Assembly: GCA_963641445.1 (NCBI GenBank)
Contig: CAVIBR010000002.1
Span: forward strand, 51,656-115,655
Length of the DNA: 64,000 nucleotides
Source: Bacteroides uniformis
GTDB lineage: Bacteria; Bacillota_I; Bacilli_A; RFN20; CAG-826
Direction: 5' to 3'
Under the pieces are notes generated by a model. The model saw only the letters and a program-made list of their open reading frames with translations, did no database searches and was not told the origin of the DNA. Below, one piece after another: positions 5,415 through 43,216 of the stretch; positions within the stretch are counted from its first letter, which is position 1; each line of letters begins with the position of its first letter. The position numbers were made by a program, and so were the translations under genes.

Positions 5415-7133
5415 TTATAGAATAATTTTCGTAGAAACCGAATCGAAAATATGAGCTCTGGAGAGATCAAGAACTACTTTGATATTTTCGTTAGCGTTTA
5501 TTAAACGTTTTGCTGCTATTTTAGCGACAAGATCCTTCTTATCAAAATCAATATGAATGAAATATTCATGTCCTAATAGTTCTGGAACGCTTACAAGTCC
5601 ATCAATTGGATCGCTAAGATTTCCGTCGGTGAAAACCTTACCAACTTCATAAATATCTTCTGGGCGTATGCCGAAAACGACATTGTATTTATTCTCTTTG
5701 ATGTATTTGGAGAATTCATTTATCGCTTTCTCTAAATATGCAAGACGTTCATTGGATTTTGTTACATGTTCTAACTCAAATTTGGTTTTCTCAATTTCAG
5801 ATGCTTTTTTAGGGGTATCCGGCAATGTTTCTAGATGTTCAAGTTTTTCTAAAAGCAGATTTCTTTCCTTAAAATTCTTTAAAAGGGTTTCTTTTTCAGT
5901 TTCATATTTCTTTAATTCGTTTGCATAGAAAGAAATTGCTTTTTCATAGTTTTCCTTACTTAGTTTGATTTCGTACCCATTTTCAAAATGGAGAATTCCG
6001 TTTTCTAATGTTGCAGTAAATAGGTTCATAGCTGGAGAACCAATAAACGTAGCAACAAAAAGGTTTGCTGGATGGTTATAGATTTCAACTGGCGTGCCAA
6101 TTTGTTGAATATGGCCTTTTTCCATGACAACAATACGGGATGCCATTGTCATAGCTTCAGTTTGGTCGTGGGTGACATATATCGTTGTTGCATTTAACCT
6201 ATTATGAAGTTTGATGATTTCCGATCTCATTTGAACACGGAGTTTTGCGTCCAAATTAGAAAGAGGCTCATCCATTAGGAATACTTTTGCATTTCTAACA
6301 ATAGCTCTGCCTAATGCAACACGTTGGCATTGCCCACCAGAAAGGGCTTTTGGTTTACGATCCAAATATTCAGTGATTTGAAGGATTTCTGCCGCATCTT
6401 TTACTCTTTCACGAATTTCTTCGTTTGGCATGTGTCTATTAACATATTTTGGTACGGGATTTTCTTTCAAATATTCAATTTTCGCCGTCAATTCCTCAAT
6501 ATCTTTATCGATTTGAGGTATTTTTTCTGATTCTGTTTCAAGACATTCATCATGGAAACGAAGGAGATTCTTCTTTTCTCTTTCTAAATCTTTGATTAAG
6601 CCGTTATTGATGGCTAAAACAGGATTTCCATCTTTATCTTTTACAAGCGTTGGGAATTTTCTTATTTTCAAACCAAAAGACATGTTTCCTGCGACAGTCT
6701 TATGAGGATAAAGAGCATAGGATTGGAAAACCATGGCTATATCACGATTCTTAGGCTCTAAATCGTTGGCGTAGATATTATCAATATACAAATCTCCTGC
6801 AGTGATATCTTCCAAACCTGCGATCATACGGAGGGTTGTAGATTTTCCGCACCCAGATGGGCCGACAAAAACAATAAATTCATGTTGTTTTATCTCTAAA
6901 TTGAAATCATAAACGGCTTGAACATGGTTATCATAGATTTTGTTGATATGTTGTAATGAAATGAAAGAATCTTTTGGAGCGATTTTTCTCTCTTTCTTAT
7001 GTTTTTTCTCATAAGAAATCATGTCATTATGGGCACGTTCTCTTTGTTCAGCTAAAGCTTTTTGCTGAATTTTTTCTTTTCTTCTTTCTTCTTTAATCTT
7101 TTCCAATTCAACTTTTCTTGCCATTTTTTCCAT
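5415..7133 (-). CDS. MsmK/MalK-like sugar ABC transporter ATP-binding protein with an N-terminal K/E-rich extension and a large coiled-coil insertion
   Basis: 572 aa. Walker [11 protein letters not shown]-loop, signature [14 protein letters not shown], Walker [16 protein letters not shown]-loop THDQ. About 70 aa of K/E-rich N-terminal extension. A roughly 100-aa insertion (…[30 protein letters not shown]…[20 protein letters not shown]…) lies between Q-loop and signature. Good RBS GGAG plus 7 nt. Confidence 0.85.
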
Positions 7134-7515
7134 GGTTTTTCTCCGTTTGTTTTCTTTCCTTAATTCTAGAACGAATGTAAGCGGTTTACTAGAATGCTAA
7201 ATTTTCCTCAAAATATACTTTTTTGACATTTTTTATTTGTCTATTATGACATCATGATTCATTATCTAATAATTATTTGGAATGTTATTCTTAAGAATAA
7301 GAATTTGCCACACTGTATTTGAAAAGTTTTTAGATGATTTCAGCAAATAATAATTATCTTGAACGTTTCTTTTAGGAAAATGAGCTTATATTCCCTTAAA
7401 TACGGGCTTTTGCGGGTGCGTTAAATGCAATTTACGCTGCTGTTCGTTATTCATCAAAGTTCTTTGGCTTTTGTCAGCTATTGCTATATTAGCAATACCG
7501 TATTTAAAAGAAAAA

Positions 7516-27197: not shown

Positions 27198-28109
27198 GTG
27201 CAATTAACCATTTATCCTTTAGATTTTGAAGAGTTCCTATATAACTCAAATAGAATCCTATATAACGTCATTAAAGATGCGTACGAGAAGAAGGCGAAAA
27301 TCGATGAATCAATACATGAATTGGCTTTGAGGCAGTTTTACGATTATTTGGTCATTGGCGGTATGCCTGAAGTCGTAAATGAATTTTTAAAAACAAAATC
27401 ATATCAATCAGCAAAAGAAATACTGATTGACCTATATGACAATTACTTAGGGGATATGGAGTTATATCAAGCTAGTCCAGAATCGATTGTTTGTTCTAAG
27501 AAAGTTTTCGAAACAGTTTATTCTCAACTCAACAAGAAGTCTAAAAACTTCAAAACGTCTTTGATTGATAAGAATCTAAAAGGAAGGGATTTGCAAACTC
27601 CTATTGATTGGCTAACGCTTGCTTTTTTGGTAAATAAATCGTCGTTAGTAAAAGAAAAAGTATCCATCCCATTAATCAGCTCAAACGAATCGCTATTTAG
27701 ATTGTATTTGTCTGATATGGGCATGTTCACATATCAAAGCAGCATTAATCCAAAAGTATTTTTATCAAACGAAGGGATAAACACGCTTAGTGGAATATTT
27801 TTTGAGAATTATGTTGCGATAGAGTTAGTAAATTATGGATATGAACTATTCTATTGGAAAGGGAAGGGCGATTCTGAATTCGAATTTGTCATCGAAAGTG
27901 AATCAAGTATCATTCCTATAGATGTTAAGAAATCAAATGGAAAACTGAACTCACTTAAGAAATATACGGAACATAACACATTGAAATACGCAGTTAAAGT
28001 ATCAAAAAACAATTACGGATTTGATGAGGAAAACAAGATTTTGACAATACCATTTTATTTCCTTCCATTTTATTTAAAAGAACTCCGTAAGAAAGAAGAA
28101 ATAGATTGA
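27198..28109 (+). pseudogene. N-terminally truncated DUF4143 AAA-ATPase paralog (the P-loop half is missing). A likely gene remnant.
   Basis: 303 aa starting at a GTG. It aligns to residues from about 125 onward of the 408/409-aa paralogs (…YPLDFEEF… versus …MPLSTKEI…; shared …YLSDMGMFTY… region) and lacks the GxxGxGKST P-loop. 16-bp direct repeats AAAAGGTGCAATTAA at 27159-27173 and 27193-27207 flank the truncation point. Confidence 0.5.
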
Positions 28110-29365: not shown

Positions 29366-30592
29366 ATGAATTACATCAGACGACAATTAGAAAAAACAGT
29401 AGAAAAATTATCAAAGCAATTTCCTGTGATTATGCTTTGTGGGCAAAGGCAAACCGGGAAATCAACAATGTTAAGACATATCGCTGAAAAAGACAGGGTA
29501 TACGTTAGTTTTGATGATAATAAAGCAAGAACATTAGCGAAAAACGACCCTGAGTTGTTTTTTGAAAGATATGGAACAAAACTAATTATTGATGAATTTC
29601 AAAGAGTTCCAGAGATTTTGTTAGAAATCAAAAAAATAGTTGATGAAAAAACATACAATGATGAGGATTCCTCAGGAATGTTTTGGTTATCGGGCTCGCA
29701 AAAATTCGTTATGATGAAAAACATTTCTGAAACATTAGCGGGTAGAGTTGCCATACTAAGCTTAATGCCTTTATCTACAAAGGAAATCAATGGGCAAGAT
29801 GAAGATGTTTTCCACCCATACATCGAAACATTAAAAAAATTAGATCCACAAAAAGTAACGCAAAGCAAGATATTCGAAAGAATATTCCAAGGCGGGCTGC
29901 CAAAGATTATTGCTAATCAAGAATTGGATAGAGATGTTTATTATTCAAGCTATATAAACACTTATATCGAAAGAGATGTATCCGCACTAGAGCAGATTGG
30001 AAAACTTGATGAATTTAGAGATTTCATCACATATATGGCCGCGAATACAGCCCAGGAATTAAAATATGAAACTATATCAAAGGTTGTTGGAGTATCTTCT
30101 CCTACCATAAAAGAATGGGTAAGCATTTTGGAACGTTCCGGAATAATATATATCTTACGTCCTTATAATAATTCAGTAAGCAAAAGATTGGTTAAAACGC
30201 CGAAATGCTATTTCATAGATACAGGATTAGCAGCGTATCTAACTTCTTGGCCAACAGCAAGAACATTAGAGAATGGAGCAGCAGCTGGCGCTTTTTATGA
30301 AACGTATGTGGTATCCGAAATACTAAAAAGCTATTTTAACAACGGAAAAGAGCCAAATATTTATTATTATCGAGACATCGATCAAAAAGAAATCGATTTA
30401 TTGATTGTAGAGGGAGATAAGATCTATCCAATTGAAATAAAAAAGAATAAATTCCCGTCAAACCCGGATAAAAATTTTAAAGCGTTGGAAAAATTCAATC
30501 TTAAAATCATGCCAGGCATAATTCTTTGTATGAGTGATCAATTAATTCCTTATAACAGAGATTGCTGGCTATGCCCTATAAGTTTGATTTGA
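29366..30592 (+). CDS. AAA+ ATPase of the DUF4143 family (paralog 3)
   Basis: 408 aa. P-loop LCGQRQTGKST. Shares …YIERDV…, …KPKLYF(S/I)DTGLAAYL… and …YYYRD…EIDL… blocks with 7516-8745. Confidence 0.7.
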   Translation: MNYIRRQLEKTVEKLSKQFPVIMLCGQRQTGKSTMLRHIAEKDRVYVSFDDNKARTLAKNDPELFFERYGTKLIIDEFQRVPEILLEIKKIVDEKTYNDEDSSGMFWLSGSQKFVMMKNISETLAGRVAILSLMPLSTKEINGQDEDVFHPYIETLKKLDPQKVTQSKIFERIFQGGLPKIIANQELDRDVYYSSYINTYIERDVSALEQIGKLDEFRDFITYMAANTAQELKYETISKVVGVSSPTIKEWVSILERSGIIYILRPYNNSVSKRLVKTPKCYFIDTGLAAYLTSWPTARTLENGAAAGAFYETYVVSEILKSYFNNGKEPNIYYYRDIDQKEIDLLIVEGDKIYPIEIKKNKFPSNPDKNFKALEKFNLKIMPGIILCMSDQLIPYNRDCWLCPISLI

Positions 30593-30674
30593 TCATCCTC
30601 ATATCAAACATCTTTATAGTTCAAAGAAAATTGGTCATTCAAAAGAAGAATCTGAAATGTTTTATTAAACACAT

Positions 30675-30790
30675 TAATCTTTACGAAATTAAAATAATCT
30701 TTCGGATTTTTAATTATTCTCTCGGAAATTGAAATAATCTTTCGGAAAATCGATTATTCTTTCGGAAAATTCCCGAAAGATTATTGGCAA
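30675..30790. repeat. Array of about five 20-bp imperfect direct repeats (consensus AATTATTCTTTCGGAAAAT) ending in one inverted copy. A repeat-rich intergenic region upstream of the zinc-ribbon/SPFH/TIR gene cluster.
   Basis: taatctttacgaaatt / aaataatctttcggatttt / taattattctctcggaaatt / gaaataatctttcggaaaat / cgattattctttcggaaaat / tcccgaaagattattgg (inverted). Contiguous, with no spacers. Confidence 0.6.
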
Positions 30791-31180: not shown

Positions 31181-32821
31181 ATGAGTAAGTTTTACATTAA
31201 ATGTCCTAATTGTGGCAAATTCCATCTAGCATCAACCGGATTATTCGCTAGCAAACATATCGATTGCGATTGCGGTTATTCGATAAGTGTCAAAAACGAC
31301 AGAATGTCTTCCACAACATGCCCTGAATGCGACAACACTGTCGTTTACGATCAAGCAAAGGCGGGCAATGCTGAATGCCCAGTTTGTCATAAGCATTTAG
31401 ACCCATTAAAAGGGAATGGCTTAGTTAGCATTCATTGTCCAACATGCAATATCCAAACTAACGTAGATAAAGCGGCAAAATATTACACTTGCCCAGTTTG
31501 CGATACTACTATTGATGTTCAAAAGCAGATCGTTAAAGAGAATGCAGCAAATAGCAAAAAGATCTCTATTATCAAATACGAAGGCCCTAAAGATGTTATT
31601 TGCTATAAATATCCAGTCGAAGACTTTATTACAGGTTCAGAATTGATTGTTCATGAATCTCAAGTCGCAGTCTTCTTCAAAGATGGTGAAGCGTTAGATA
31701 CTTTCGGACCGGGAAGGCATTTCTTAACGACTGATAGGCTTCCTTTGATTGGAAAGTTCTACAAATTAGATACAAATCAAAACGCTCAGCCTTTCCATTG
31801 TGAAATATATTTCGTAAATATGTCCACCATAATGGGCGTCAAATGGGGCACGCCAAACAAAGTAGGCTTATTTGATCCTCATTCTGGTCTTCATGTCGAT
31901 ATTGGCGCATGCGGAACATTTAACCTAGTCGTCAAAGATGCAAGGAAACTCTTATTCAAGATTGTTGGCACAAGCAATGGCCTTTTTGAAGATGACATCA
32001 TTGGCGAAGATAGATTCTCTGGCATTTTCAAAGACTTGCTTGTTAACAAAGTTAAATCAAATCTTGCAAAAACAATCAGAGAAAGCAACATCAATATCCT
32101 TGAAGTAGACGAACATATCGATGAGATATCCGATGTTTTGAAGAAAGTGGTCAATCCAACACTTGAAGAATACGGGTTATCAATAACTGAATTCTACGTT
32201 GTTAACATTCTTCTTCCTAACGATGATCCAAACTTCAAGAAAATGAAGGAACAATATGCCGAGCAATATTTGAAAGTGAGAAACGAAAACATCCTTAAAG
32301 ATGAAGCGTTAGCAAAGCAGCAAAGAAGAATGGTTGAACTTCAAACTGAACAAAATGAAGAAATAATCAGAGCCCAAGCAAAAGCTCAAGCGTATCGTTT
32401 GCAAGCTCAAGCTGAAGCCGATGAAATGAAAATGAAGGGATACACCTACCAACAAGAAACCCAAAGACAGGTTGCATTAGGTGCAGTAACGAATGCGAGT
32501 GGAGAAGGCGGAGGAGTATCCGGAACTGCTTCAAGTATGATTGATTTGGGAATTGGCCTGGGAATGATGAAGGAGGTTGCAAAAACCGTTGGTGAAACAT
32601 TAAAACCAGGACTAGAAGAAAGTAAAAACGTCATATCAGAAACAATAAGTCCTTCTTCCACTTGGGAATGCCCTGAGTGCCATGCCAAAGGGCTAACTTC
32701 TAAGTTCTGCCCAGAATGTGGAGCAAAGAAGCCAGACGAAGAATGGACTTGTCCTGAATGCCATACCGAACATATCAAAACAAAATTCTGTCCTAATTGC
32801 GGACACAAAAGAGGAGAATAA
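31181..32821 (+). CDS. Multi-zinc-ribbon protein with a central SPFH/Band-7 (Band_7_1, YdjI-like) domain and a coiled-coil region
   Basis: 546 aa. The N-terminal 120 aa carry six CxxC pairs (CPNCG, CDCG, CPECD, CPVCH, CPTCN, CPVCD). Residues about 130-330 (IIKYEGPKDVICYKYPVEDFITGSELIVHESQVAVFFKDGEALDTFGPGRHFLTTD…FHCEIYFVN…GACGTFNLVV…) match the SPFH-like Band_7_1 fold. Then a Q/A/E-rich coiled coil and a Gly-rich linker. The C-terminus has two more zinc ribbons (CPECHAKG…CPECGAK; CPECHTEH…CPNCGHK). Confidence 0.65.
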   Translation: MSKFYIKCPNCGKFHLASTGLFASKHIDCDCGYSISVKNDRMSSTTCPECDNTVVYDQAKAGNAECPVCHKHLDPLKGNGLVSIHCPTCNIQTNVDKAAKYYTCPVCDTTIDVQKQIVKENAANSKKISIIKYEGPKDVICYKYPVEDFITGSELIVHESQVAVFFKDGEALDTFGPGRHFLTTDRLPLIGKFYKLDTNQNAQPFHCEIYFVNMSTIMGVKWGTPNKVGLFDPHSGLHVDIGACGTFNLVVKDARKLLFKIVGTSNGLFEDDIIGEDRFSGIFKDLLVNKVKSNLAKTIRESNINILEVDEHIDEISDVLKKVVNPTLEEYGLSITEFYVVNILLPNDDPNFKKMKEQYAEQYLKVRNENILKDEALAKQQRRMVELQTEQNEEIIRAQAKAQAYRLQAQAEADEMKMKGYTYQQETQRQVALGAVTNASGEGGGVSGTASSMIDLGIGLGMMKEVAKTVGETLKPGLEESKNVISETISPSSTWECPECHAKGLTSKFCPECGAKKPDEEWTCPECHTEHIKTKFCPNCGHKRGE

Positions 32822-32826
32822 AAACC

Positions 32827-33525
32827 ATGGTTAAGAAAGAAACTTATATTTTCGCTGGAATTATTACGGCCTTATCTTTATTGGCGTATTCTCTTCTATT
32901 TTTCCTCATTCCATTTCCAGTAAAGGATTCTAATGGACACATATTGAATTATGTGACAACGCTTGTGCTTGCTATCACCTTTGTCTGTTCTTTCCTTTTT
33001 GGCTTGTGGAAAAGAAAAGATGTCGCAGGACTTGTTTATAGAATTCCATTAATCAAGTTGATAATCGGATTTGTTATTGCCAACGTAATCGTTTCAATCA
33101 TTGAATGTACCATTAACTCCTTCGTGCCAATGCCATTCTATGCGCCAATAATTGTTGGAATCTTTGAACTCATCTTCTTCTTCAGTTTATTTGTGTTAAA
33201 AAGACAAAATATAACTCACATCGAAAATAACGAAGATAAACAAAAAGAAATGACAAGCGTCATTAAAGAATTAAGAACAAGAGCTAACGTTATCTTCAAT
33301 AACTGCAACGATGATGTTTCAAAAGAAAATATGAAGAAAGTTGTAGACGCTCTTCAATATTCTGATCCTGTTTCTTCTAAAGCGACAATTGAAAATGATG
33401 GCAAAATTGCTTCATTGTTAAATCAATTAGAAGAAATGGTTAATGATGGAAAATCCATAACATCCGTTGATGAAATATTAAAAGCAATTAGCAAAAGAAA
33501 CATAACAGCAATCAATAACAAATAA
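32827..33525 (+). CDS. Small membrane protein (4 predicted TM helices plus a C-terminal cytoplasmic helical domain), unknown function. Start revised to the ATG at 32827.
   Basis: The ORF track starts at a TTG (32797) inside the upstream gene. The ATG at 32827 (MVKKETYIF…) is preceded by AGAGGAGAA plus 8 nt and lies 5 nt after the upstream stop. Four hydrophobic segments, then a charged tail …KELRTRANVIFNNCNDDVSKENMKKVVDALQYSD…. Confidence 0.5.
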   Translation: MVKKETYIFAGIITALSLLAYSLLFFLIPFPVKDSNGHILNYVTTLVLAITFVCSFLFGLWKRKDVAGLVYRIPLIKLIIGFVIANVIVSIIECTINSFVPMPFYAPIIVGIFELIFFFSLFVLKRQNITHIENNEDKQKEMTSVIKELRTRANVIFNNCNDDVSKENMKKVVDALQYSDPVSSKATIENDGKIASLLNQLEEMVNDGKSITSVDEILKAISKRNITAINNK

Positions 33526-33540
33526 TCAGGAGTCTCTTTT

Positions 33541-36500
33541 ATGGCTTTATTTAAATGCAAAATGTGTGGGGGAGATCTCGTGGTCAAAGAGGGTGAGAAA
33601 GTAACCAAATGCCCCTATTGTGAGACAGCCCAAACAATCCCTAATCAAAAAGATGAACAAACAGTCAAATTAATTAACCGCGGAAATTTATTACGTAACC
33701 AAGGTGAATTCGATAAAGCGTATGGTATATTTTCCCAACTTCTAAATTCAGAAACCGAAGACGCGGAATTATATTGGAACCTTCTTCTTTGCAAATACGG
33801 CATAACATATGTCGATGATTATGATGGGAAGAAGATTCCAACCATCAATAGAATGTCACGCACCTCAATTCTTGATGATGACGATTATAAGAAAGTACTC
33901 TCTTTAGCAGATGTCGTTGCAAAAGATAATTATGTTGATGAAGCGAACAAAATAGCTAAGATTCAGGAGGGAATTTTGAAAATTGTTAATTCTGAAGAAC
34001 CATACGATGTCTTCATTTCCTACAAAGAAAGTGATGAAACAGGCGATAGAACAAGAGATTCCATTTTAGCGCAGGAAATCTACGATACTTTCACTAAAGA
34101 GGGATATCGTGTTTTTCTTTCCCGCATAACTCTTTCTAACATTATCGGAAAAGAATACGAACCATACATTTATTCTGCATTGTATTCATCAAAAATAATG
34201 TTATTGGTTTGCACGGATGAAAGTTACGTCAATTCCGTTTGGGTCAAAAATGAATGGACCAGATTCTTAGGCATGATGAAAGAGGATAAGAGTAAAACGC
34301 TTATCCCATGTTATAGAGATCTTGATCCATATGATTTGCCTAAGGAAATCAGAAACCTTCAAGGACTTGATATGTCCAAGCTTGGCTTCATCCAAGATTT
34401 AAAAACAGGCGTTTGCAAAATCCTTGGCAAAAAGAAAGCTGAGGCTGTTCCTTCTCCTACTCCAGCAAAAACGGAAAACAAGAACGAATCTCTAGATTTA
34501 GTCACCAAAATGATCAAAAGAGGATTCAGCTTCCTTGAACAAGAAAAGGGTGAACAAGCCAAAAAGATGTTTGAAGAGTCTTTGCTATATGAAGAAAGAA
34601 CCTACGCTTATTTAGGGTTACTTTGTCTTAAATACAATTGTTCAACAGTTGAAGAATTATATGCGCTTGATGATAAAAACATTGCAAACCAACCTCTTTT
34701 CAAAAAAGCTTTAAGCGTTGCTAACGAACAAGAACGAGAAACGTTAAATAACATCGTTAAAAGCATTACGGACAAAACATATAAGAAGGATCTAGCTAAA
34801 TACAATGCCGCTTTGAAATTGAAAAACGATGGCAATTATCATGACGCAATTCAAGCGTTTAATGCAATTCTAGATTTTTCCGATTCAAAGAATCAAATCA
34901 AAGAATGTGAAAATTTAATTCTAGAAGGTAAAAAAGCAATCCTTTACGAAAGACTATGCAAACAATATCAAGATAAATATTTCAAAGGCGTTTTAGAAAC
35001 GTTCCAAGAATTATATAAATTAGATAAAGATTATAAAGATTCTCGTAAATTGCAAGATGAATCCATTATCGCTTTATGCAACAATTTATTAAAAAGGAAC
35101 GATTATGTTAAAGTTCGAAAACTACTTAATGAAAATAGGTGTTTTTCCAAGGAATACATTGATGAAACATATAAAAAATGTGATCAGATTGAAAGAGAAA
35201 CTGAAAGCAAACAAGCAGAACATAAAAGAAGGCAAAACATTTATCAAGAATGTGATGTAATCAAAGAAAATGAAACGCTTTCTGACCTAGAAGCAAAATT
35301 GAACAAACTTCTTACGTGCAAGGGCGATGATTGCTATCCAGAATATACAGAGCAAAAGCTCAAAACAGCCATTAGGAAGAAAAAAGCAAAAAAAGGAATA
35401 TTCATAACTATCACCACAATGATTGTTTTAGCCGTTGGCGGAGGGATTCTCGCTAATGTAATCGTTAGCAAGATCAATGACAAAAAAGAGGCGGAGAGAT
35501 TATCTTCAATCGAAGAAAGACAATCTCAAGAACTATCTTCATTAAAGAAAAAATACGCCGCACCTATATTCAATTTCGAAGAAAAAACGATGACGTATGG
35601 CGTTTATCCACAAACTGTCGTTGATGATGAATCACTCATTGGCAAATTAAACGATTTAACAGGAGATTCTCAACATGAAAATGAATTTTATTATTACAAC
35701 GAAGAATATTATTATCCGGTAAAAGCAAATCCGAATAAGAGTAACTACGTTTTTAGCAATGGATCAAATATCATTAGTTCCACAAAATATTGGTTCAAAG
35801 TAGAGCCAATAAAATGGAAGATGATAAATGCTAGCGAAGACAGCATCACTTTAACAAGTACGGCATTGGTAACTAGACAGGCTTTTGCTGCCTCAACATA
35901 TGCCAATTCAGATGCAAGGAAATGGATTAATGGAGGATTTTATAACAAAGCTTTTTGTTTAGATGATTCCTTAATTCTTACTAGTGAGGTTGATAATAGT
36001 CATTCGATGCAAGATACATGTGGTAGCAAATATTACGAAGACAATACAAACGATAAGTTATATCTTTTAAGTTACCAAGATATTTATCAAAGAAAATACG
36101 AACTATCAACCGATACGACTGATCCTTATAACACCGGTTGCAAAATAACGGATTACATTAGAGCGTGTGGCGCATATTGCGACCTAAAAACTGGCTATGA
36201 ATATAATGGTGATTATTGGACGCGTTCCCTTTGCTCATCATCGGGCAATCCATCATGCGTAAATTCAAATGACACAATTAATCATAGCGTAGGTAATCGA
36301 AACTATAATGCATGCCTTAGACCATGCATGAAAATATCACACAAATGGACAGATGAAGAAAAAGCGTTAGCAAATAAGAACAATAATCAATTATCAGAGG
36401 GAAAGGCCGAGATTAAAGAAAAATATGGCAAACCTGTCGTAGATTTAGCTAATAACACGGTGAAATATGGCATATATCCACAAACTCTTGTTTCCGATGA

Positions 36501-37158
36501 AGCGTTAACAACTAAGTTAGATTCATCCTCTATTTACGATAGCGCTAACGGATGGTCTTACTATAACGGCGAATATTATAAGAAGTTTAAAGCTAACCCA
36601 TATGATAGTTCTTATACATACGATAACGATGAAACAATCGTAAGCGGAACATATTATTGGTTTAAATGTGAGCAAGTCGAATGGAAGATAATGAAAACGG
36701 GCGATGATGGCACATATCAACTAATAACTTCAAAACTGATAGATTGCAGATACTATTCATCAACACCAATGGATGATAGTTTTGCCAATTCATCAATAAG
36801 GACATGGCTTAACGGAACTTTTTATAATCAGATTTTTCTTGATCAGTCATATGTTCAAGAAACAAGCGATGAAAATAAATTTTATTTTTTAAGTGAGGAC
36901 GAATTATGCAGCTCAGATTATGGTTTTTCCTCCGATAATGCTTCGCGCTATTGCAAGACAACAGACTACGCTAGAGCGAATTATGCTTGTATTTATACTG
37001 ATGATGAAACTAAATATAACGGAATGTATTGGACTAGGACATATTATAAAGGTGGAGGCGGAGTTTTTTATGTCATCAAAAACGGATTTAACGATAGAGA
37101 CTCTGAATCAAGCATTATTTGCATTCGTCCATGCGTGAATATCAAAATCTCCGAATAA
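33541..37158 (+). CDS. Single-pass membrane TIR-domain protein: N-terminal zinc ribbon, TPR-like repeats, TIR domain, TPR-like region, one TM helix, then two extracellular DUF1566/Fib_succ_major-like lectin-type modules
   Basis: 1205 aa. Zinc ribbon CKMCGG…CPYCET. TIR: …PYDVFISYKESDETGDRTRDSILAQEIYDTFTKEGYRVFLSRITLSNIIGKEYEPYIYSALYSSKIMLLVCTDESYVNSVWVKNEWTRFLGM (DVFISY start, alphaC-like SxWxxNEW with Glu). TM at about aa 620, GIFITITTMIVLAVGGGILANVIV, preceded by KKKAKKG (N-in). The C-terminal 560 aa contain two repeated modules, each ending Y/MYWTRS/T…C(L/I)RPC(M/V)(K/N)I. RBS CAGGAG. Confidence 0.7.
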   Translation: MALFKCKMCGGDLVVKEGEKVTKCPYCETAQTIPNQKDEQTVKLINRGNLLRNQGEFDKAYGIFSQLLNSETEDAELYWNLLLCKYGITYVDDYDGKKIPTINRMSRTSILDDDDYKKVLSLADVVAKDNYVDEANKIAKIQEGILKIVNSEEPYDVFISYKESDETGDRTRDSILAQEIYDTFTKEGYRVFLSRITLSNIIGKEYEPYIYSALYSSKIMLLVCTDESYVNSVWVKNEWTRFLGMMKEDKSKTLIPCYRDLDPYDLPKEIRNLQGLDMSKLGFIQDLKTGVCKILGKKKAEAVPSPTPAKTENKNESLDLVTKMIKRGFSFLEQEKGEQAKKMFEESLLYEERTYAYLGLLCLKYNCSTVEELYALDDKNIANQPLFKKALSVANEQERETLNNIVKSITDKTYKKDLAKYNAALKLKNDGNYHDAIQAFNAILDFSDSKNQIKECENLILEGKKAILYERLCKQYQDKYFKGVLETFQELYKLDKDYKDSRKLQDESIIALCNNLLKRNDYVKVRKLLNENRCFSKEYIDETYKKCDQIERETESKQAEHKRRQNIYQECDVIKENETLSDLEAKLNKLLTCKGDDCYPEYTEQKLKTAIRKKKAKKGIFITITTMIVLAVGGGILANVIVSKINDKKEAERLSSIEERQSQELSSLKKKYAAPIFNFEEKTMTYGVYPQTVVDDESLIGKLNDLTGDSQHENEFYYYNEEYYYPVKANPNKSNYVFSNGSNIISSTKYWFKVEPIKWKMINASEDSITLTSTALVTRQAFAASTYANSDARKWINGGFYNKAFCLDDSLILTSEVDNSHSMQDTCGSKYYEDNTNDKLYLLSYQDIYQRKYELSTDTTDPYNTGCKITDYIRACGAYCDLKTGYEYNGDYWTRSLCSSSGNPSCVNSNDTINHSVGNRNYNACLRPCMKISHKWTDEEKALANKNNNQLSEGKAEIKEKYGKPVVDLANNTVKYGIYPQTLVSDEALTTKLDSSSIYDSANGWSYYNGEYYKKFKANPYDSSYTYDNDETIVSGTYYWFKCEQVEWKIMKTGDDGTYQLITSKLIDCRYYSSTPMDDSFANSSIRTWLNGTFYNQIFLDQSYVQETSDENKFYFLSEDELCSSDYGFSSDNASRYCKTTDYARANYACIYTDDETKYNGMYWTRTYYKGGGGVFYVIKNGFNDRDSESSIICIRPCVNIKISE

Positions 37159-37221: not shown

Positions 37222-38883
37222 TTAACTTTGTTTTTCACATTTAATAGAAACTTTGTTTTTATAGAAACTAACACCAAACAAAAGGGTATTCTTAATACCT
37301 AGATTTTTTAATTCTTGATCGTATCCTTGCGTTTTTATTTGTTTTATAGCATTCTCTGTTGAATTTTCTAATCTCGATTCAATTGTTCTAGTTTTTAAAG
37401 ATTTAACTTCAACCACAAATCCTAAATCTTTGTTATCTTTTGGTATGACTACTATATCCGCTCTGCCACTACCAGCATTGAATTCGTTTTTGATGTATGC
37501 GTCATCGAATATTACGGCTAAAGTCGTAGATAACAATATTTGGTAGTTTTTCTCTAAATTCATCTCATATGATGAGAAAGTAGACAAGAGATATTTTTCC
37601 ATTAAGTCCTTAAGATTAGAAGAATCTCCATCTTGGAAGGCCTTCTTCAATTTATAGACTAGAGGAATTTGATCACTCCTAAGATATCTGGAACGGATTT
37701 CTCTTCTGAACACTGCTTTGATTTCTTTGTTAGGTATAACAAGGCTGTAAAATTCTTCGTAGTTATCCGAGATTGATAAGTAACCACTAGCTAAAAGATA
37801 AGAACATACCGAAATAAACGAATCGTCTAAATCCTTATAGGAAAGAGCTATATCTATCTCGGTATTAATCTTCTTATCAGATAATAAAGGCAATAAGGAA
37901 TTTAAACGTTCTAAGCTAAGTATCTTTCCTAAAGTTTTGCTTTCGCCAGTATTGTTCCAATACATTCCATCTTCTCCCCCGTTTTGAATAAAGCTCAAAA
38001 CAGATAATGGATTGAATATTTTAGAATTTCCAAACTTATATCCTCCATACCAGGAGCAGACATCATCATATCTCTCAGAATAGTCATAATATTCAAGCAT
38101 ATCTTTGACTTCATTTTCGGTGAAGCCAAATCCTTCATCCATATTCTTAGAAAGAATTGAGTTGGTAACTAAATTATTAACCCCGGAGAATAATGATTCT
38201 TTTGCGATTTGCAGTATTCCAGTTATCACGGCTAAACGAAGAGATTGATTGGTCTTTAAGCTTTCACCGAAATATTGTTTGAAGAACATGATCGTTTCAT
38301 CATAGAAACCATAATCAAAAGAATAATGAACAGGAGAATCATATTCATCAATTAAGATGATGACCTTTTTATTAGTCGTTTTATATAGCATCTCAGACAA
38401 TCTTAGCAAGGAACTAGAAAGATCGTTTATCGTAGAATCCTTAGCGACAATTGATTGAAAATATTCTTTTTCTTCAGAATTTAATGTCGATGAAGAAAGA
38501 ATATAGGCATGGCGTTGATACTCTTTGCTCATACATTCTTTCATTTTTTCAATCAATGTTTCAAAATCCATTCCTATTACATTTTTTAAATTGATATGTA
38601 TAAGCGGGTATTTTTGGAATTCATTTTCAATAACTTCTTTGTTATTCCATATTTTTTTACCTTTGAAATATTGACTTTTATCGGTTTCGTCTTTTTCAAA
38701 AAACTCTTGAAGCATTGATAACATCAAAGTTTTGCCAAATCTTCTAGGACGAGTAAAAAGTAAGCATGTTCCAGTAGGAAATTTTGAAATAGTCTCAATA
38801 ATGTTTGTTTTGTCTACGTAATAACATTCATTCGATACTGTCTCGAAGAATTCAATTCCTAATGGTACAGGTTTCTTTTCCAT
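37222..38883 (-). CDS. AAA-ATPase_like N-terminal domain plus C-terminal PD-(D/E)XK nuclease-like domain protein (DUF1703-type predicted AAA-ATPase)
   Basis: 553 aa. Hallmark N-terminal region …ECYYVDKTNIIETISKF…LFTRPRRFGKTLMLSMLQEFF… and Walker-B-like ILIDEYDSPV. C-terminal …NAGSGRADIVVIPKDNKDLGFVVEVKSLK… matches the PD-(D/E)XK (D…EVK) core of DUF1703. RBS CAGGAG. Convergent with the TIR gene. Confidence 0.65.
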   Translation of the reverse strand: MEKKPVPLGIEFFETVSNECYYVDKTNIIETISKFPTGTCLLFTRPRRFGKTLMLSMLQEFFEKDETDKSQYFKGKKIWNNKEVIENEFQKYPLIHINLKNVIGMDFETLIEKMKECMSKEYQRHAYILSSSTLNSEEKEYFQSIVAKDSTINDLSSSLLRLSEMLYKTTNKKVIILIDEYDSPVHYSFDYGFYDETIMFFKQYFGESLKTNQSLRLAVITGILQIAKESLFSGVNNLVTNSILSKNMDEGFGFTENEVKDMLEYYDYSERYDDVCSWYGGYKFGNSKIFNPLSVLSFIQNGGEDGMYWNNTGESKTLGKILSLERLNSLLPLLSDKKINTEIDIALSYKDLDDSFISVCSYLLASGYLSISDNYEEFYSLVIPNKEIKAVFRREIRSRYLRSDQIPLVYKLKKAFQDGDSSNLKDLMEKYLLSTFSSYEMNLEKNYQILLSTTLAVIFDDAYIKNEFNAGSGRADIVVIPKDNKDLGFVVEVKSLKTRTIESRLENSTENAIKQIKTQGYDQELKNLGIKNTLLFGVSFYKNKVSIKCEKQS

Positions 38884-41149: not shown

Positions 41150-43216
41150 TTAGTTTAAGGCGATAGAAGAAATAACCATCAATCCAGCAAATACGTATCC
41201 CATTGCAAAGAACACGCCATATAAAATCAAGGTGAAATAATCTAAAGGCTTATTCCTGCTTCCGAAATGTGGGTGATAGAAAAGTAGCATTGGAGCTAGA
41301 TAGATAATTTCCCAATATCCTCCTAATCCCCTATTTCCTTTTGTTGAATGGGCGAGCAAATATTCCGTTAAGGAAAGAACGCAGATAATCACGCAGATAA
41401 GAATATTCTTCATAAAATAGAATTTATTGCCGTTAAAGAAACGTCCTGCAACTTCAGGTCCATATCTGAATTTAAAGAAGAGTCTAAGGAAATAAAGACC
41501 GATCAAGTAAGAGCAGCATAATAAGGAGAATTGAGGTCTTTCGGAATTGAAGAAATAAACCTGCCATGTATTAAAGTTTAGGCCCCATTTCTTGTAGTTT
41601 TGGAAAATAACGGTTGAAATGATAATCCATGCTAAAGGAAGAATGGCTAAGCACCTAAAACCTATTGTTTTCTTCTTTGAATCCATCCAGCCTGGAGAAT
41701 AGAAAAGGAAGACCATGATGCCAAAATAACAAGCGATCGTAGAAAAGTTATTCGGAATGACATAGAAAAGATCGACTATCTTAGCAACTCCTCTTGTCAT
41801 GCTGAAATATTGAACCAATGTTGCTTCAAGAATATATAATCCAAAGAAAACAATGAAATAAAGGAAGAAATTTCTAAGACTTCTTCTATCATTAAGGAAA
41901 ATATCGAAATCAATGAAATATAGTAAGAACATTCCAACCGTGAAATACATGAACAAGCTTAAGGAAGTAGATTCGAAATCGGATTGATCGATTCCTGTGA
42001 AGGTGAAAAGATTTATCGTATAAAGAATGATTCTTATCGAGCCGAAAAAGACAAGACCTATTCCAATTAATTCATATATCGTTTCAGGAACAAATGGATA
42101 GAAACGTATGTCTTTCTTCGGTGTCACGCATGATCTAGATATTGGAGCGTCGTTTGCTAATTTAAGTTCACGTGCTGCATCCTTTGCTAATCTCTTTTTG
42201 CTCTTTCCACCAAAGAAGATGGCAAAGAGAATGAAGAAAAGGAATCCACCAGTTAGAATAACTCCGCCTAAACCAAAGCCAAGAGAAGAAATCTCCGCAT
42301 AAAGATTCTCCGTCGCGCTTTCTGCATGATCGACAAGCAATTCGTTATAGAAATTGTAATCTAAGTCTAATTTCTCTTTGATTAAAGATGTGAAGGCGTC
42401 GTTAAGCTCATTAACATGTTCTAAGGCCTTATCTTTTAATTTTAGATACACCTCACTAGAAGATTCATAATGGTTATATGCCCCATCATAGAGATCATCG
42501 GTGAATTTAAACTCACTTTTATCATCGTCTCTTTGTAGGTTGTTCGTGTATTTTACGAGGGTTTCGCGGTCGATATATTGAAATTTGATTGTTGTTAATG
42601 CTTTTTTTGCATCATTAGGAATGATGTAATAAATATTCTCTTCCTCGCTTGAATAACAAACATATGCGTTAAGACTTCTAATAGCGTAGTCTTCCGTTGA
42701 AGTACTAATAGAGGTAAATCTCCCATTAGAAGATGAATGAATCTCAGGTCTAGTCATCTCGTGGAGGAGGGAAACTGTTGTTCCGCCTTTTTCTCTCATT
42801 GTATAAGCGAATGTTAGATATCTTTCGTTATAGAAATCAGTCGCATGATCCATGACATAGCCATAACGGCAAAAGCCGAATATCGTTAAGCCAATTGATG
42901 CAAGAAGGAAAACCAATATTCCTATTTTGACATATACCTTTGATAATAATTTCTGATAGAACTTAACAAACCAACCGACCTTTTCAGGCAATTCAGCAGG
43001 ATAAGAGGAGACTCCTTCAAGATATTGAGAATAATCAACGCCTAATGCTTTAGAAATTCTTTCAACGTATTTTTTGCCTGGTTTGACATATCCATTTTCG
43101 TAATAAGAATAAAAAAGAGGGGGTACGTTAAGCAGTTTTGCAAACTTTCGCTTAGTTAATCCCATCTCCATTCTTCTCTTGTAGAGATATTCGTTATAGG
43201 CGATGCTTACTTCCAT
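41150..43216 (-). CDS. Membrane protein with an N-terminal cytoplasmic XRE-type HTH domain fused to a large polytopic membrane domain (membrane-anchored one-component regulator candidate)
   Basis: 688 aa. N-terminal …YLYKRRMEMGLTKRKFAKLLNVPPLFYSYYENGYVKPGKKYVERISKALGVDYSQYLEG is HTH_XRE. Then 1 TM, an extracytoplasmic domain of about 230 aa, a second TM and a basic loop (GKSKKRLAKDAAREL), then about 8 further TM helices. TGT-TATACT (extended -10) lies 7 nt upstream of the ATG: leaderless candidate. Confidence 0.6.
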   Translation of the reverse strand: MEVSIAYNEYLYKRRMEMGLTKRKFAKLLNVPPLFYSYYENGYVKPGKKYVERISKALGVDYSQYLEGVSSYPAELPEKVGWFVKFYQKLLSKVYVKIGILVFLLASIGLTIFGFCRYGYVMDHATDFYNERYLTFAYTMREKGGTTVSLLHEMTRPEIHSSSNGRFTSISTSTEDYAIRSLNAYVCYSSEEENIYYIIPNDAKKALTTIKFQYIDRETLVKYTNNLQRDDDKSEFKFTDDLYDGAYNHYESSSEVYLKLKDKALEHVNELNDAFTSLIKEKLDLDYNFYNELLVDHAESATENLYAEISSLGFGLGGVILTGGFLFFILFAIFFGGKSKKRLAKDAARELKLANDAPISRSCVTPKKDIRFYPFVPETIYELIGIGLVFFGSIRIILYTINLFTFTGIDQSDFESTSLSLFMYFTVGMFLLYFIDFDIFLNDRRSLRNFFLYFIVFFGLYILEATLVQYFSMTRGVAKIVDLFYVIPNNFSTIACYFGIMVFLFYSPGWMDSKKKTIGFRCLAILPLAWIIISTVIFQNYKKWGLNFNTWQVYFFNSERPQFSLLCCSYLIGLYFLRLFFKFRYGPEVAGRFFNGNKFYFMKNILICVIICVLSLTEYLLAHSTKGNRGLGGYWEIIYLAPMLLFYHPHFGSRNKPLDYFTLILYGVFFAMGYVFAGLMVISSIALN

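Follow-up and report, generated by a model that had tools for sequence, protein, structure and literature searches.

The TIR-protein gene of a 64-kb window (the whole stretch of DNA analysed here) carries, in its 3′ part, what a first-pass annotation described as a duplicated extracellular module. This raises the question of which module was duplicated, whether it lies outside the cell, and what a protein that joins it to a TIR domain might do. In the whole 1205-aa protein, Pfam finds TIR_2 (3e-14) and DUF6273 (1.3e-16). The gene and its parts, all on the + strand, are as follows.

33541..37158, + strand: TIR-protein gene, ORF of 1205 aa, in the order zinc ribbon, TIR, helical repeat, TM, two DUF6273
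33541..33639, + strand: N-terminal CxxC..CxxC zinc ribbon (C6, C9, C24, C27)
34009..34380, + strand: TIR domain, aa 157–280, predicted cytoplasmic (Pfam TIR_2, 53.9 bits)
34252..34254, + strand: E238 codon, in the WVKNEW motif, at the catalytic-Glu position of NAD-cleaving TIRs
34441..35394, + strand: cytoplasmic helical or TPR-like juxtamembrane region, aa 301–618, the fastest-evolving part
35395..35475, + strand: single TM helix, aa 619–645, a signal-anchor and the sole hydrophobic segment
35476..35556, + strand: predicted extracellular helical stalk before module 1 (helix, model residues 2–30)
35551..36345, + strand: module 1, aa 671–935, extended DUF6273 with a predicted decorated C-type-lectin-like fold
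36241..36300, + strand: most variable stretch of module 1, positions 231–250, YWTRS to CLRPC, a candidate ligand-contact loop
36346..36426, + strand: helical inter-module linker (helices, model residues 296–320)
36421..37155, + strand: module 2, aa 961–1205, a diverged copy minus an ~18-residue loop of module 1
37051..37110, + strand: equivalent stretch of module 2, aa 1171–1190, assigned to positions 231–250 by the 64-module alignment

Tandem duplication of the module

BLASTP of aa 671–940 (nt 35551–36360) against aa 941–1205 (nt 36361–37155) gives 94/272 identities (35%) and 51% positives, with E = 2e-42 for this single comparison, so the internal duplication proposed in the first-pass annotation is real. 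All seven of the ordered motif blocks on which the proposal was based are found in both copies: YG(V/I)YPQT, YYN(E/G)EYY..KANP, YWFK(V/C)E..W, W(I/L)NG.FYN, CK.TDY.RA, YWTR(S/T) and C(L/I)RPC. The module limits, placed there at 35570–36330 and 36420–37155, match those found here (35551–36345 and 36421–37155) within ~20 nt. The count of two copies stands, while the repeat unit is slightly larger than claimed, each module being preceded by an alpha-helix; in the whole-ectodomain model, these helices are the stalk (aa ~644–672) and the linker (aa ~938–962). The two modules arose by one old tandem duplication of this 'helix + module' unit. Module 2 has its secondary-structure elements in the same order as module 1 in the predicted model, and module-2 copies group as a separate clade. 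The dN/dS of module 2 is 0.15, and both modules are kept under purifying selection.

Similarity is left at the DNA level between 35782–35845 and 36649–36712 (70%) and between 35901–35945 and 36783–36827 (76%). Both pairs lie at the period of the protein repeat. Internal duplication alone is an ordinary event, and it is recurrent in this family, with an independent case in the relative P0035 and two copies of Lcl_C in P0116.

Family and fold of the modules

Pfam assigns two stretches of the protein to DUF6273 (PF19789), with 61.4 bits for the whole protein, 52.9 bits for module 1 alone and 31.5 bits for module 2 alone, against a gathering score of 23.5 bits. Consistent with this assignment, both modules contain the DUF6273 C-terminal motifs YW(L/T)RS ... 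G(V)RPA, in which R and S are conserved in 37 and 34 of 38 sequences, and the later R and P in 33/38 and 28/38. In the subclade of this protein, Cys replaces the flanking G and A, in 3/38 sequences.

The modules had first been read as lectin-like domains of the DUF1566/Fib_succ_major type. The duplicated ectodomain module survives from that reading, as DUF6273; the family does not. DUF1566/Lcl_C (PF07603) gives no HMM match with the whole protein (E <= 1) or with either module (E <= 10), in a Pfam scan that does find Lcl_C in the relative P0116 (58.6 bits). Fib_succ_major (PF09603/TIGR02145) has no match in Pfam or NCBIfam, and hhalign of 38 module sequences (alignment A1) against the P0116 Lcl_C module, with that single sequence rather than the Pfam profile as template, gives a probability of 2%. 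We therefore reject membership of DUF1566 and Fib_succ_major at the family level. Foldseek did not find the C-terminal domain of Legionella pneumophila Lcl (8Q4E), which has ~120 residues as compared with ~265 per module.

The whole-ectodomain model (pLDDT 90.5) predicts that each module has a C-type-lectin-like core to which extra beta-hairpins are added, a fold that matches the N-terminal domain found in Thomasclavelia ramosa IgA peptidase (IgAse/ThomasA; 9QA6), the sole solved DUF6273 member, despite only 18% identity. That domain contains a structural zinc site (D78, H90, C126) and is the single N-terminal copy on a protease that is secreted and sortase-anchored, whereas the TIR protein is signal-anchored and bears two tandem copies at its C-terminus. 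The DUF6273 domain of the IgA peptidase is dispensable for substrate cleavage (PMC12237041). The modules do not show the Lectin_C HMM match plus EPN/QPD and WND sugar/Ca2+ motifs of canonical Ca2+-dependent C-type lectins. When chains in the PDB were searched with the ectodomain sequence, the sole match was DPP6 (E = 0.008), which we judged spurious. DUF6273 also occurs in IgA proteases and phage receptor-binding proteins, and we know of no ligand for any DUF6273 domain.

One alternative is that the protein is a surface adhesin for host mucus glycans or other microbes, with the TIR domain in a secondary role such as regulation of turnover. One gut member of the Bacillota does have DUF6273 as the N-terminal part of an IgA peptidase anchored to its cell wall (PMC12402451, PMC12237041), phage DUF6273 proteins have been suggested to attach to the surface of the host bacterium or of the intestine (10.1101/2024.10.15.618418), and the nearest structural cousin of the module, Lcl_C, is part of an adhesin. 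The ectodomain is also rich in tyrosine (55/560 residues), and in stand-alone relatives the module comes together with a lipoprotein signal, Flg_new repeats or collagen repeats. An adhesin nevertheless leaves unexplained the conserved cytoplasmic zinc ribbon-TIR chassis with its invariant catalytic-type residue, the family members that have no ectodomain, and the linked SPFH and 4-TM genes described below, and we consider it quite unlikely.

The variable stretch of the modules

Positions 231–250 have the highest column entropy across 64 modules (2.8–2.9 bits), and the stretch of module 1 has only 0–2 of 10 residues in common with module 2. DUF6273 recurs among the targets of diversity-generating retroelements (DGRs) (PMC10743442, PMC11792537), and in the phage targets the variable region sits at the domain's C-terminal end (PMC11792537; 10.1101/2024.10.15.618418). 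Judged by alignment, the two modules diverge most in the loop region that phage DGRs mutate in DUF6273. The two modules are conserved yet divergent in this loop, and therefore probably recognize two ligands, or two parts of one.

The phage DGR targets (tentaclins and Mtd-like proteins from Faecalibacterium phages and other phages of the gut) have the same DUF6273 domain, with a C-type-lectin-like fold (PMC10743442), and hypermutate the C-terminus that corresponds to the most variable region of the modules here. In the viral locus L059, a target-like gene is 40% identical across the whole extended module, shows a GC-rich patch where the corresponding C-terminal stretch lies and is followed by an Avd gene; we found no variable/template repeat pair on its contig, which stops ~220 nt past avd. 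The modules of the TIR protein could by analogy be DGR targets, and their duplication could have supplied two mutable binding heads. The recurrence of DUF6273 among DGR targets, the Avd gene and GC-rich patch of L059, and the location of the most variable stretch of the family all fit this idea. However, the 64-kb window contains no Avd homologue and no template/variable repeat pair involving the TIR gene, the differences from a 98%-identical allele are not clustered at the C-termini of the modules, and dN/dS is about 0.15–0.2. Specifically, there are 29 differences from this allele in all, evenly spread, and the whole-gene dN/dS is 0.16; six of the 29 fall in aa 936–972, at a rate of 16% as compared with ~2% elsewhere. 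We found no positive selection between close alleles of the TIR gene by dN/dS. In contrast to the phage DGR targets, the modules here are chromosomal, are fused to a cytoplasmic TIR domain and are under ordinary purifying selection, with no DGR machinery or template repeat in the window. We reject a DGR target at the TIR locus as highly improbable, given the evenly spread allelic differences and a window with neither a repeat pair nor Avd.

Membrane topology

The residues that flank the TM helix give a topology signal. Averaged over 90 homologues with a single TM, the 15 residues that precede the helix contain 5.9 K+R and those that follow it 1.7, and in 85 of the 90 there are more K+R before the helix than after it. 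This bias supports an outside C-terminus, in agreement with the placing of the modules in an ectodomain by the first-pass annotation, and the sequence predicts a type-II single-pass protein with its N-terminus in the cytoplasm and its C-terminal ~560 residues outside. On the cytoplasmic side, TPR matches in aa 301–618 are weak in this protein and clear in relatives, and the region has merely 37–55% identity among close orthologues.

This arrangement does not extend to all relatives. A predicted TM helix is absent from 48 of 127 family members, and some members have no ectodomain whatever. We reject the possibility that all variable C-terminal domains are ectodomains: in P0048, LRR_5 precedes a C-terminal anchor, and in P0029 the sole membrane segment is a TM hairpin at the C-terminus, which puts the variable domain of both in the cytoplasm. 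Because of such TM-less or C-anchored members, outside sensing cannot be common to the whole family.

Bacillota contain other single-pass sensors with interchangeable ectodomains, namely PrkC-type PASTA kinases and RsgI anti-sigma factors. The TIR protein resembles these in its N-terminal cytoplasmic output, single TM helix and modular extracellular C-terminal domain, and differs in that the output is a TIR domain rather than a kinase, anti-sigma or DNA-binding domain. Part of the DUF6273 module is also found in XRE-HTH-TM proteins (P0163, P0164, P0167).

The TIR domain

Within the family, conservation is highest in the 300-residue cytoplasmic zinc ribbon-TIR chassis. All four cysteines of the zinc ribbon, which has a weak NF045720 rubredoxin-like match, are 97–99% conserved (n = 121 homologues) and are invariant in 60 representatives chosen on the N-terminal chassis (alignment A3). 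The TIR domain is 88% identical to that of the P0005 orthologue, as compared with 57% over the whole protein.

By phmmer, the TIR domain aligns with that of flax L6 (3ozi), pairing E238 with the Glu of L6 'SKWCLMEL'. E238 and W234 are 100% conserved in the 121 homologues and invariant in alignment A3 (n = 60). With its match to a TIR HMM and its conserved Glu in the W..E helix, the domain has the features of the enzymatic, NAD+-cleaving class, and NADase activity would follow from such a fit; TIR catalysis requires a conserved Glu, but the Glu alone is not enough for it. TIR domains of animal Toll-like receptors, which are scaffolds, align at the E238 position too.

Thoeris ThsB and other NAD+-cleaving TIRs have TIR_2 and the conserved Glu at the catalytic position in common with this protein. 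The similarity to ThcB4 of type III Thoeris is weak (5.5e-7, 28.7 bits as compared with a 220-bit cut-off), and the locus has neither a ThsB above cut-off nor an adjacent ThsA. No TIR-signal effector such as ThsA lies nearby, and PADLOC has no match for the TIR, SPFH or 4-TM proteins. A known defence system is accordingly rejected, as PADLOC is silent and ThcB4 lies far under the cut-off. To our knowledge, characterised bacterial TIR systems are cytoplasmic and sense events inside the cell; the TIR protein, unlike these, is predicted to be membrane-inserted, with a 560-residue domain outside.

A three-gene cluster

Two further genes precede the TIR gene.

31181..32821, + strand: SPFH partner, soluble, 546 aa (Pfam Band_7_1 1.4e-39, DZR; no TM helix)
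32827..33525, + strand: 4-TM partner, 232 aa with a ~100-aa cytoplasmic tail; ATG at 32827 gives the 232 aa of the orthologues

The SPFH partner begins with zinc ribbons, continues with the SPFH domain (Band_7_1) and a coiled coil, and ends in double zinc ribbons. The 4-TM partner falls outside all known families, with no match in Pfam, NCBIfam or PADLOC, and a homology search returned 5 matches only, too shallow for structure prediction; tblastn against the loci of relatives finds 4-TM relatives at 21–30% identity. Of 37 evaluable loci, 22 have the 4-TM gene co-located with the TIR gene and 23 have the SPFH gene, 19 of these 23 in the order SPFH, 4-TM, TIR. The linkage is tight and operon-like. 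On the + strand there is no terminator within the cluster, and in a promoter scan promoter-like sites were no commoner than expected by chance.

The window also contains gyrA, gyrB and serS, which places the TIR gene on the chromosome. Other neighbours are AAA-ATPase_like/PDDEXK_9 and PDC-S01 genes, and the neighbourhood contains candidate defence genes. Between genomes in which SerS and GyrA are 96–97% identical, the helical region and the 4-TM partner are only 37–58% identical. This fast evolution of the non-TIR parts, together with the defence-island-like setting, suggests an anti-phage or inter-bacterial conflict role.

A second alternative is that the cluster is an envelope-stress or membrane-organisation module, in which the YdjI-like SPFH partner and the membrane proteins would arrange membrane domains or repair them, the lectin-like modules anchor to the cell's own surface polysaccharide and the TIR domain is a scaffold, not an enzyme. 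In Bacillus subtilis, the pspA-ydjGHI operon encodes YdjG (zinc ribbons, NTF2-like, TM), YdjH (TPM) and YdjI (Band_7_1 and zinc ribbon) (10.1101/2020.09.24.301986), and YdjI ties PspA to the membrane via membrane partners (PMC8581546; 10.1101/2020.09.24.301986). The SPFH partner shares with YdjI its Band_7_1 domain and C-terminal zinc finger, its solubility and its place beside membrane proteins (PMC8581546), and differs in its extra N-terminal zinc ribbons. YdjG begins with a zinc ribbon, as the TIR protein does (primer sequence, PMC8581546), and the PADLOC result and the operon-like linkage are what such a module would give. Only the SPFH component matches, however, and we reject identity with pspA-ydjGHI: the cluster has no PspA or TPM domain, and the 4-TM protein is not the TPM-domain YdjH. 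Nor does a housekeeping role predict 37–58% identity in the helical region and 4-TM partner, many different C-terminal domains, or the strict invariance of a catalytic-type Glu. An envelope role for the cluster is thus unlikely in our estimate, if somewhat less so than an adhesin. The Psp comparative literature that we examined describes no SPFH link to a TIR protein.

A candidate surface receptor

The layout of a lectin-like ectodomain joined to a TIR domain makes the protein look like a surface receptor. We assign a probability of roughly 0.55 to this reading, with two lectin-like heads outside, an enzyme-type TIR domain inside and a role in conflict. In such a receptor, the modules would bind one or more extracellular glycan or protein ligands, and ligand engagement would cluster or re-orient the receptors. 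The cytoplasmic TIR domains, with E238, could then assemble as an oligomer that cleaves NAD+ or produces a signal, while the co-transcribed SPFH/zinc-ribbon and 4-TM proteins might serve as a scaffold at the membrane, a regulator or an effector. Against this reading count the dispensable DUF6273 domain of the IgA peptidase, the Toll-like receptor TIR scaffolds that align at E238, the PADLOC result and the missing ThsA-type effector, the TM-less or C-anchored relatives, the dN/dS of close alleles, and the strain with a split gene described below.

More tentatively, and at a clearly lower probability, the protein may represent a large, so far undescribed class of bacterial TIR receptors in the membrane that relay signals inward. 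Their interchangeable heads, among them DUF6273, Lcl_C, RCC1 propellers and Flg_new repeats, would sense an external cue and turn on a cytoplasmic TIR NADase, and a co-evolving SPFH/zinc-ribbon protein would join a 4-TM protein to make up a three-gene system. The most attractive cue would be a phage particle, or the receptor-binding protein on it, sensed ahead of genome entry; the ectodomain would then share the fold that the phages of these bacteria use and diversify for cell-surface recognition. We found no described transmembrane bacterial TIR receptor or TIR-SPFH system in a literature search that had most subscription journals outside its scope.

If functional, the protein would be a bacterial counterpart of the Toll-like receptor layout of ectodomain, TM helix and TIR, and surface sensing coupled to TIR output would not be an animal invention. 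The likeness is one of analogy only: the overall logic is that of animal Toll-like receptors, which join an ectodomain that binds a ligand through a single TM helix to a TIR domain in the cytoplasm, and the TIR domain of the protein aligns weakly with a TLR TIR structure (7ylf), but the topology is inverted, with the TIR N-terminal and the ectodomain C-terminal, and the ectodomain is predicted to be lectin-like rather than LRR. There is no sign of common descent with the Toll-like receptor architecture.

The family comprises 3,887 clusters at 50% identity, found mainly in Clostridia and Bacilli of gut and rumen. A family so large, so gut- and rumen-centred and so fast-evolving could shape gut dynamics between phage and host or between microbe and host. 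With their divergence, the two tandem modules are a natural system in which to ask what DUF6273 binds. An identical 1205-aa sequence is already present in public collections. In one strain, a frameshift in an A-tract at nt 35266 splits the TIR half from the ectodomain half, and the intact TIR-ectodomain fusion is therefore not indispensable.

Duplication and family of the ectodomain modules

The TIR gene is a single 1205-aa ORF (33541..37158, +), and the duplicated part, made up of two modules, is its last 1.6 kb:
35551-36345, +, module 1 (m1), residues 671-935
36421-37155, +, module 2 (m2), residues 961-1205

BLASTP alignment of residues 671-940 with residues 941-1205 gives 35% identity and 51% positives with E = 2e-42, far past chance, bearing out the internal repeat proposed in the first-pass annotation, and all seven motif blocks listed there are found in the same order in both halves. 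At the DNA level, short similar stretches with a common period of ~870-880 nt remain between m1 and m2. Together, these observations establish that the duplication is real and lies where it had been placed. In a model of the whole ectodomain, an α-helix stands ahead of each module, indicating that the repeated unit is 'helix + module'.

A neighbour-joining tree built from modules of TIR proteins separates the m1 copies of homologues P0001-P0006 from the m2 copies of P0001-P0004, each set being a clade of its own, indicating a single duplication older than orthologues whose present identity is 46%. P0005 and P0006 each contain one module, nested inside the m1 clade, and have probably lost m2. 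Homologue P0035 carries an independent, younger duplication (copies 69% identical), and homologue P0116 has two Lcl_C modules in tandem. Doubling of the lectin-like head thus recurs in the TIR family, and the duplication on its own is an ordinary event. The tandem Lcl_C (DUF1566) modules of P0116 (locus L004) follow its TM helix, with cysteine-rich 'TCTVCGQ' repeats ahead of each; the immediate upstream neighbour is a 204-aa gene, and Fic and HEPN genes are found on the downstream side.

By Pfam, m1 (52.9 bits) and m2 (31.5 bits) both belong to DUF6273 (PF19789; gathering score 23.5 bits). The match spans only the C-terminal ~150 of ~260 residues in each module. The N-terminal ~90 residues form an extension (YGxYPQT ... 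YYxxGxEY ... KAxP ... YWFKVEPIKW) that is common to all 64 module segments collected, and other DUF6273 proteins align only from the WFKVEPIKW strand on. The module adds a new member to the DUF6273 family. The first-pass annotation had likened it to DUF1566. As a distant fold resemblance this may well stand; as a family assignment it does not, since neither DUF1566/Lcl_C nor Fib_succ_major (PF09603 / TIGR02145) is matched in Pfam or NCBIfam, even at permissive thresholds, and hhalign of the module profile with a genuine Lcl_C module of P0116 returns a probability of 2%. The cysteines of the 'RPC' signature noted at the same time are present but limited to this subclade, the DUF6273 consensus being GVRPA. 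The lectin motifs EPN, QPD and WND do not occur in the modules.

Comparison with the 98%-identical allele at locus L060 gives dN/dS values of 0.16 overall, 0.21 for m1 and 0.15 for m2, indicating that both copies are maintained. The most variable blocks among the 64 modules are positions 231-250, between YWTRS and CLRPC, where m1 and m2 have 0-2/10 residues in common; in addition, an ~18-residue loop of m1 is absent from m2. Where phage DUF6273 proteins serve as DGR targets, their variable region is at the C-terminus of the domain (PMC11792537; 10.1101/2024.10.15.618418). That the window gene is itself such a target is highly improbable, as it has neither a template repeat nor Avd, and its allelic differences are evenly distributed, apart from a surplus in the linker between the modules.

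L059 (IMGVR_UViG_3300010346_002427), a contig of viral or mobile origin with two serine integrases, carries at 5662-7215 a lipoprotein gene that includes the extended module in full (40% identity); a DGR Avd gene comes immediately after it. In the stretch equivalent to module positions 231-250, between YWWLRS and GARPA, the lipoprotein gene has a conspicuous GC-rich patch, as a DGR variable region would show. Three tandem 21-nt repeats occupy 7192-7265, and the contig stops ahead of any reverse transcriptase or template repeat.

Predicted topology and the TIR chassis

The TIR protein has one hydrophobic segment, residues 619-645, with RKKKAKK just before it, and its N-terminus is a zinc ribbon rather than a signal peptide. 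In 90 single-TM homologues, the 15 residues flanking the TM helix contain on average 5.9 K+R before it versus 1.7 after it, with more before than after in 85. The prediction is accordingly a cytoplasmic location for the zinc ribbon, TIR domain and helical repeats and an extracellular one for the stalk and the two modules. The host is most likely a monoderm gut lineage of Bacilli/Mollicutes type, because the window SerS falls in a cluster named 'Mollicutes bacterium' and the window contains a match to a lipoteichoic-acid-anchor-type glycosyltransferase.

Alignment of the TIR domain (residues 157-280) with the flax L6 TIR places E238 (WVKNEW) at the Glu of the WCLMEL motif, which we take to be the residue that NAD+-cleaving TIRs use for catalysis. 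Neither E238 nor W234 varies among 121 homologues, in which the zinc-ribbon cysteines are 97-99% conserved, and all of these positions are invariant in 60 representatives picked by the chassis, the zinc ribbon-TIR part, alone. The protein could also be read as a surface adhesin, which we judge rather improbable.

An exhaustive HMMER search with chassis residues 1-300 (E <= 1e-30) yields 3,887 clusters at 50% identity, the match being always N-terminal, in proteins of 430-1746 aa. Among 60 unbiased representatives, Pfam finds after the chassis RCC1 repeats in 8, DUF6273 in 7, LRR_5 in 6, LRR_8 in 4, and Flg_new, ankyrin, FNIP and Lcl_C in one each; about half have nothing recognisable by Pfam there. 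DUF6273, Flg_new, RCC1 and Lcl_C are positioned after the TM helix in the proteins checked. TM prediction for 127 representatives gives no helix in 48 and one helix in 63, 55 of the latter having at least 150 residues beyond it. Some members are tail-anchored: in P0048 (locus L008), LRR_5 repeats (residues 436-521) precede a C-terminal TM helix (705-723) and are hence cytoplasmic, and P0029 (L005-L007) has only a C-terminal TM hairpin, with an extra 274-aa gene between its 4-TM and TIR genes. Members of the family therefore have in common a zinc ribbon-TIR-TPR chassis and differ in the C-terminal region, which can lie inside or outside the cell, and the window protein is predicted to belong to the outside class.

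Three XRE-type HTH proteins (P0163, P0164 and P0167) have two HTH_3 domains, one TM helix (residues 162-180 in P0164) and a C-terminal region matching part of the same module, indicating that the lectin-like head is also joined to DNA-binding one-component membrane regulators.

Two independent assemblies, GCA_963653265.1 and SRR13434624, lack 1 nt at window nt 35266 (codon 576), which makes an A8 run out of ..CAAAGAAAATG.. (L061 3292-6908; L062 2886-6502). The gene is thereby divided into a cytoplasmic zinc ribbon-TIR-helical ORF of 582 aa and a TM + ectodomain ORF of 635 aa, and the frameshift may mark a pseudogene, a system in two parts or phase variation at the homopolymer.

A conserved gene trio and the proposed mechanism

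The TIR gene is the third and last of three closely spaced plus-strand genes, preceded by:
31181..32821, +, SPFH gene, soluble protein of 546 aa whose SPFH/Band_7_1 domain is surrounded by several zinc ribbons
32827..33525, +, 4-TM gene, 232-aa protein with four TM helices (ATG at 32827 agrees with orthologues)

The 4-TM protein matches no known family. The order SPFH-4TM-TIR is repeated in related loci with differing flanks. Specifically, upstream sequence sufficed for a judgement in 37 of 50 species-level loci (Clostridia and Bacilli); the SPFH gene is present in 23 of these, both partners in 22 and the full order in 19. Gaps are mostly 20-45 nt, and partner identity falls to 35% and 21-30%. 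The LRR_5 member P0048 is a solitary gene without the partners. We found no description of the trio (window 31181-37158; L001-L007, L009-L058) in the literature searched. The SPFH protein resembles B. subtilis YdjI; unlike the YdjI setting, the trio locus has neither a pspA gene nor TPM-domain YdjH. An envelope-organisation module in which the TIR domain is a scaffold is, in our judgement, unlikely.

The architecture, fold, duplication history, conservation pattern and gene linkage are established, and we hold the structural part of the reading with high confidence. TIR enzymes need oligomerisation. We propose that the two lectin-like heads would bind one or more external ligands, and that binding would control how the cytoplasmic TIR domains assemble into an active form that consumes NAD+ or produces a signal, with the SPFH and 4-TM proteins possibly serving as scaffold, regulator or effector. 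We assign this overall reading, architecture plus ligand-controlled TIR output with SPFH and 4-TM partners, a probability of about 0.55; outside-in TIR signalling as such is put forward tentatively. TIR proteins of bacteria, like single-pass sensors whose ectodomains are modular, are kinds already known. The unusual feature is the combination: a TIR protein that is inserted in the membrane, bears a large, predicted extracellular lectin-like domain and belongs to an extensive family in which the C-terminal domains vary and two partner genes are conserved; the literature searched yielded no description of such a protein with its partners.

Divergence and genomic neighbourhood

Between the window and the genome of P0005, SerS and GyrA are 96-97% identical. 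Identity is 84% for the SPFH protein, 58% for the 4-TM protein and 57% for the TIR protein as a whole (TIR domain 88%, helical region 37%, m1 65%). Such fast divergence beside near-identical SerS and GyrA is typical of conflict or surface genes. Just upstream of the trio are two matches to PDC-S01, a PADLOC candidate single-gene defence system:
27198-28109, AAA_14/DUF4143, copy without ~140 N-terminal residues (PADLOC 2e-70)
29366-30592, AAA_14/DUF4143, full copy (PADLOC 4e-110)

PDC-S01-like genes also flank the cluster in L001, L002 and L060, and related loci contain Schlafen/AlbA_2, DUF4011 helicase, Fic, HEPN and RelB/ParE genes. No PADLOC model matched the TIR, SPFH or 4-TM proteins.

In the intergenic region between the PDC-S01 and SPFH genes, at 30673-30785, stand four tandem 20-nt units (consensus about AATAATCTTTCGGAAAAT) and, after them, an inverted copy (TTCCCGAAAGATTATT); together they could act as an operator array controlling the three genes. 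On the other side lie:
37222-38883, -, AAA-ATPase_like + PDDEXK_9 gene, convergent with the TIR gene
41150-43216, -, 688-aa protein with an N-terminal HTH_3 domain and ~nine TM helices
43264-45147, +, 627-aa protein without family match, divergent from the HTH_3 gene

The first of these is present in the window and in L061/L062 and missing from the same place in the 98%-identical L060, indicating a presence/absence polymorphism. The other two form a pair that is syntenic in L001, L002 and L060 (77-87% identity). The closest species-level genome (L001 / L009, CAVJFO010000023.1) is labelled 'Hallerella sp.' (Fibrobacterota); its contig is syntenic with the window, with flanking genes 76-84% identical, and is probably mis-binned, or the MAG mislabelled.
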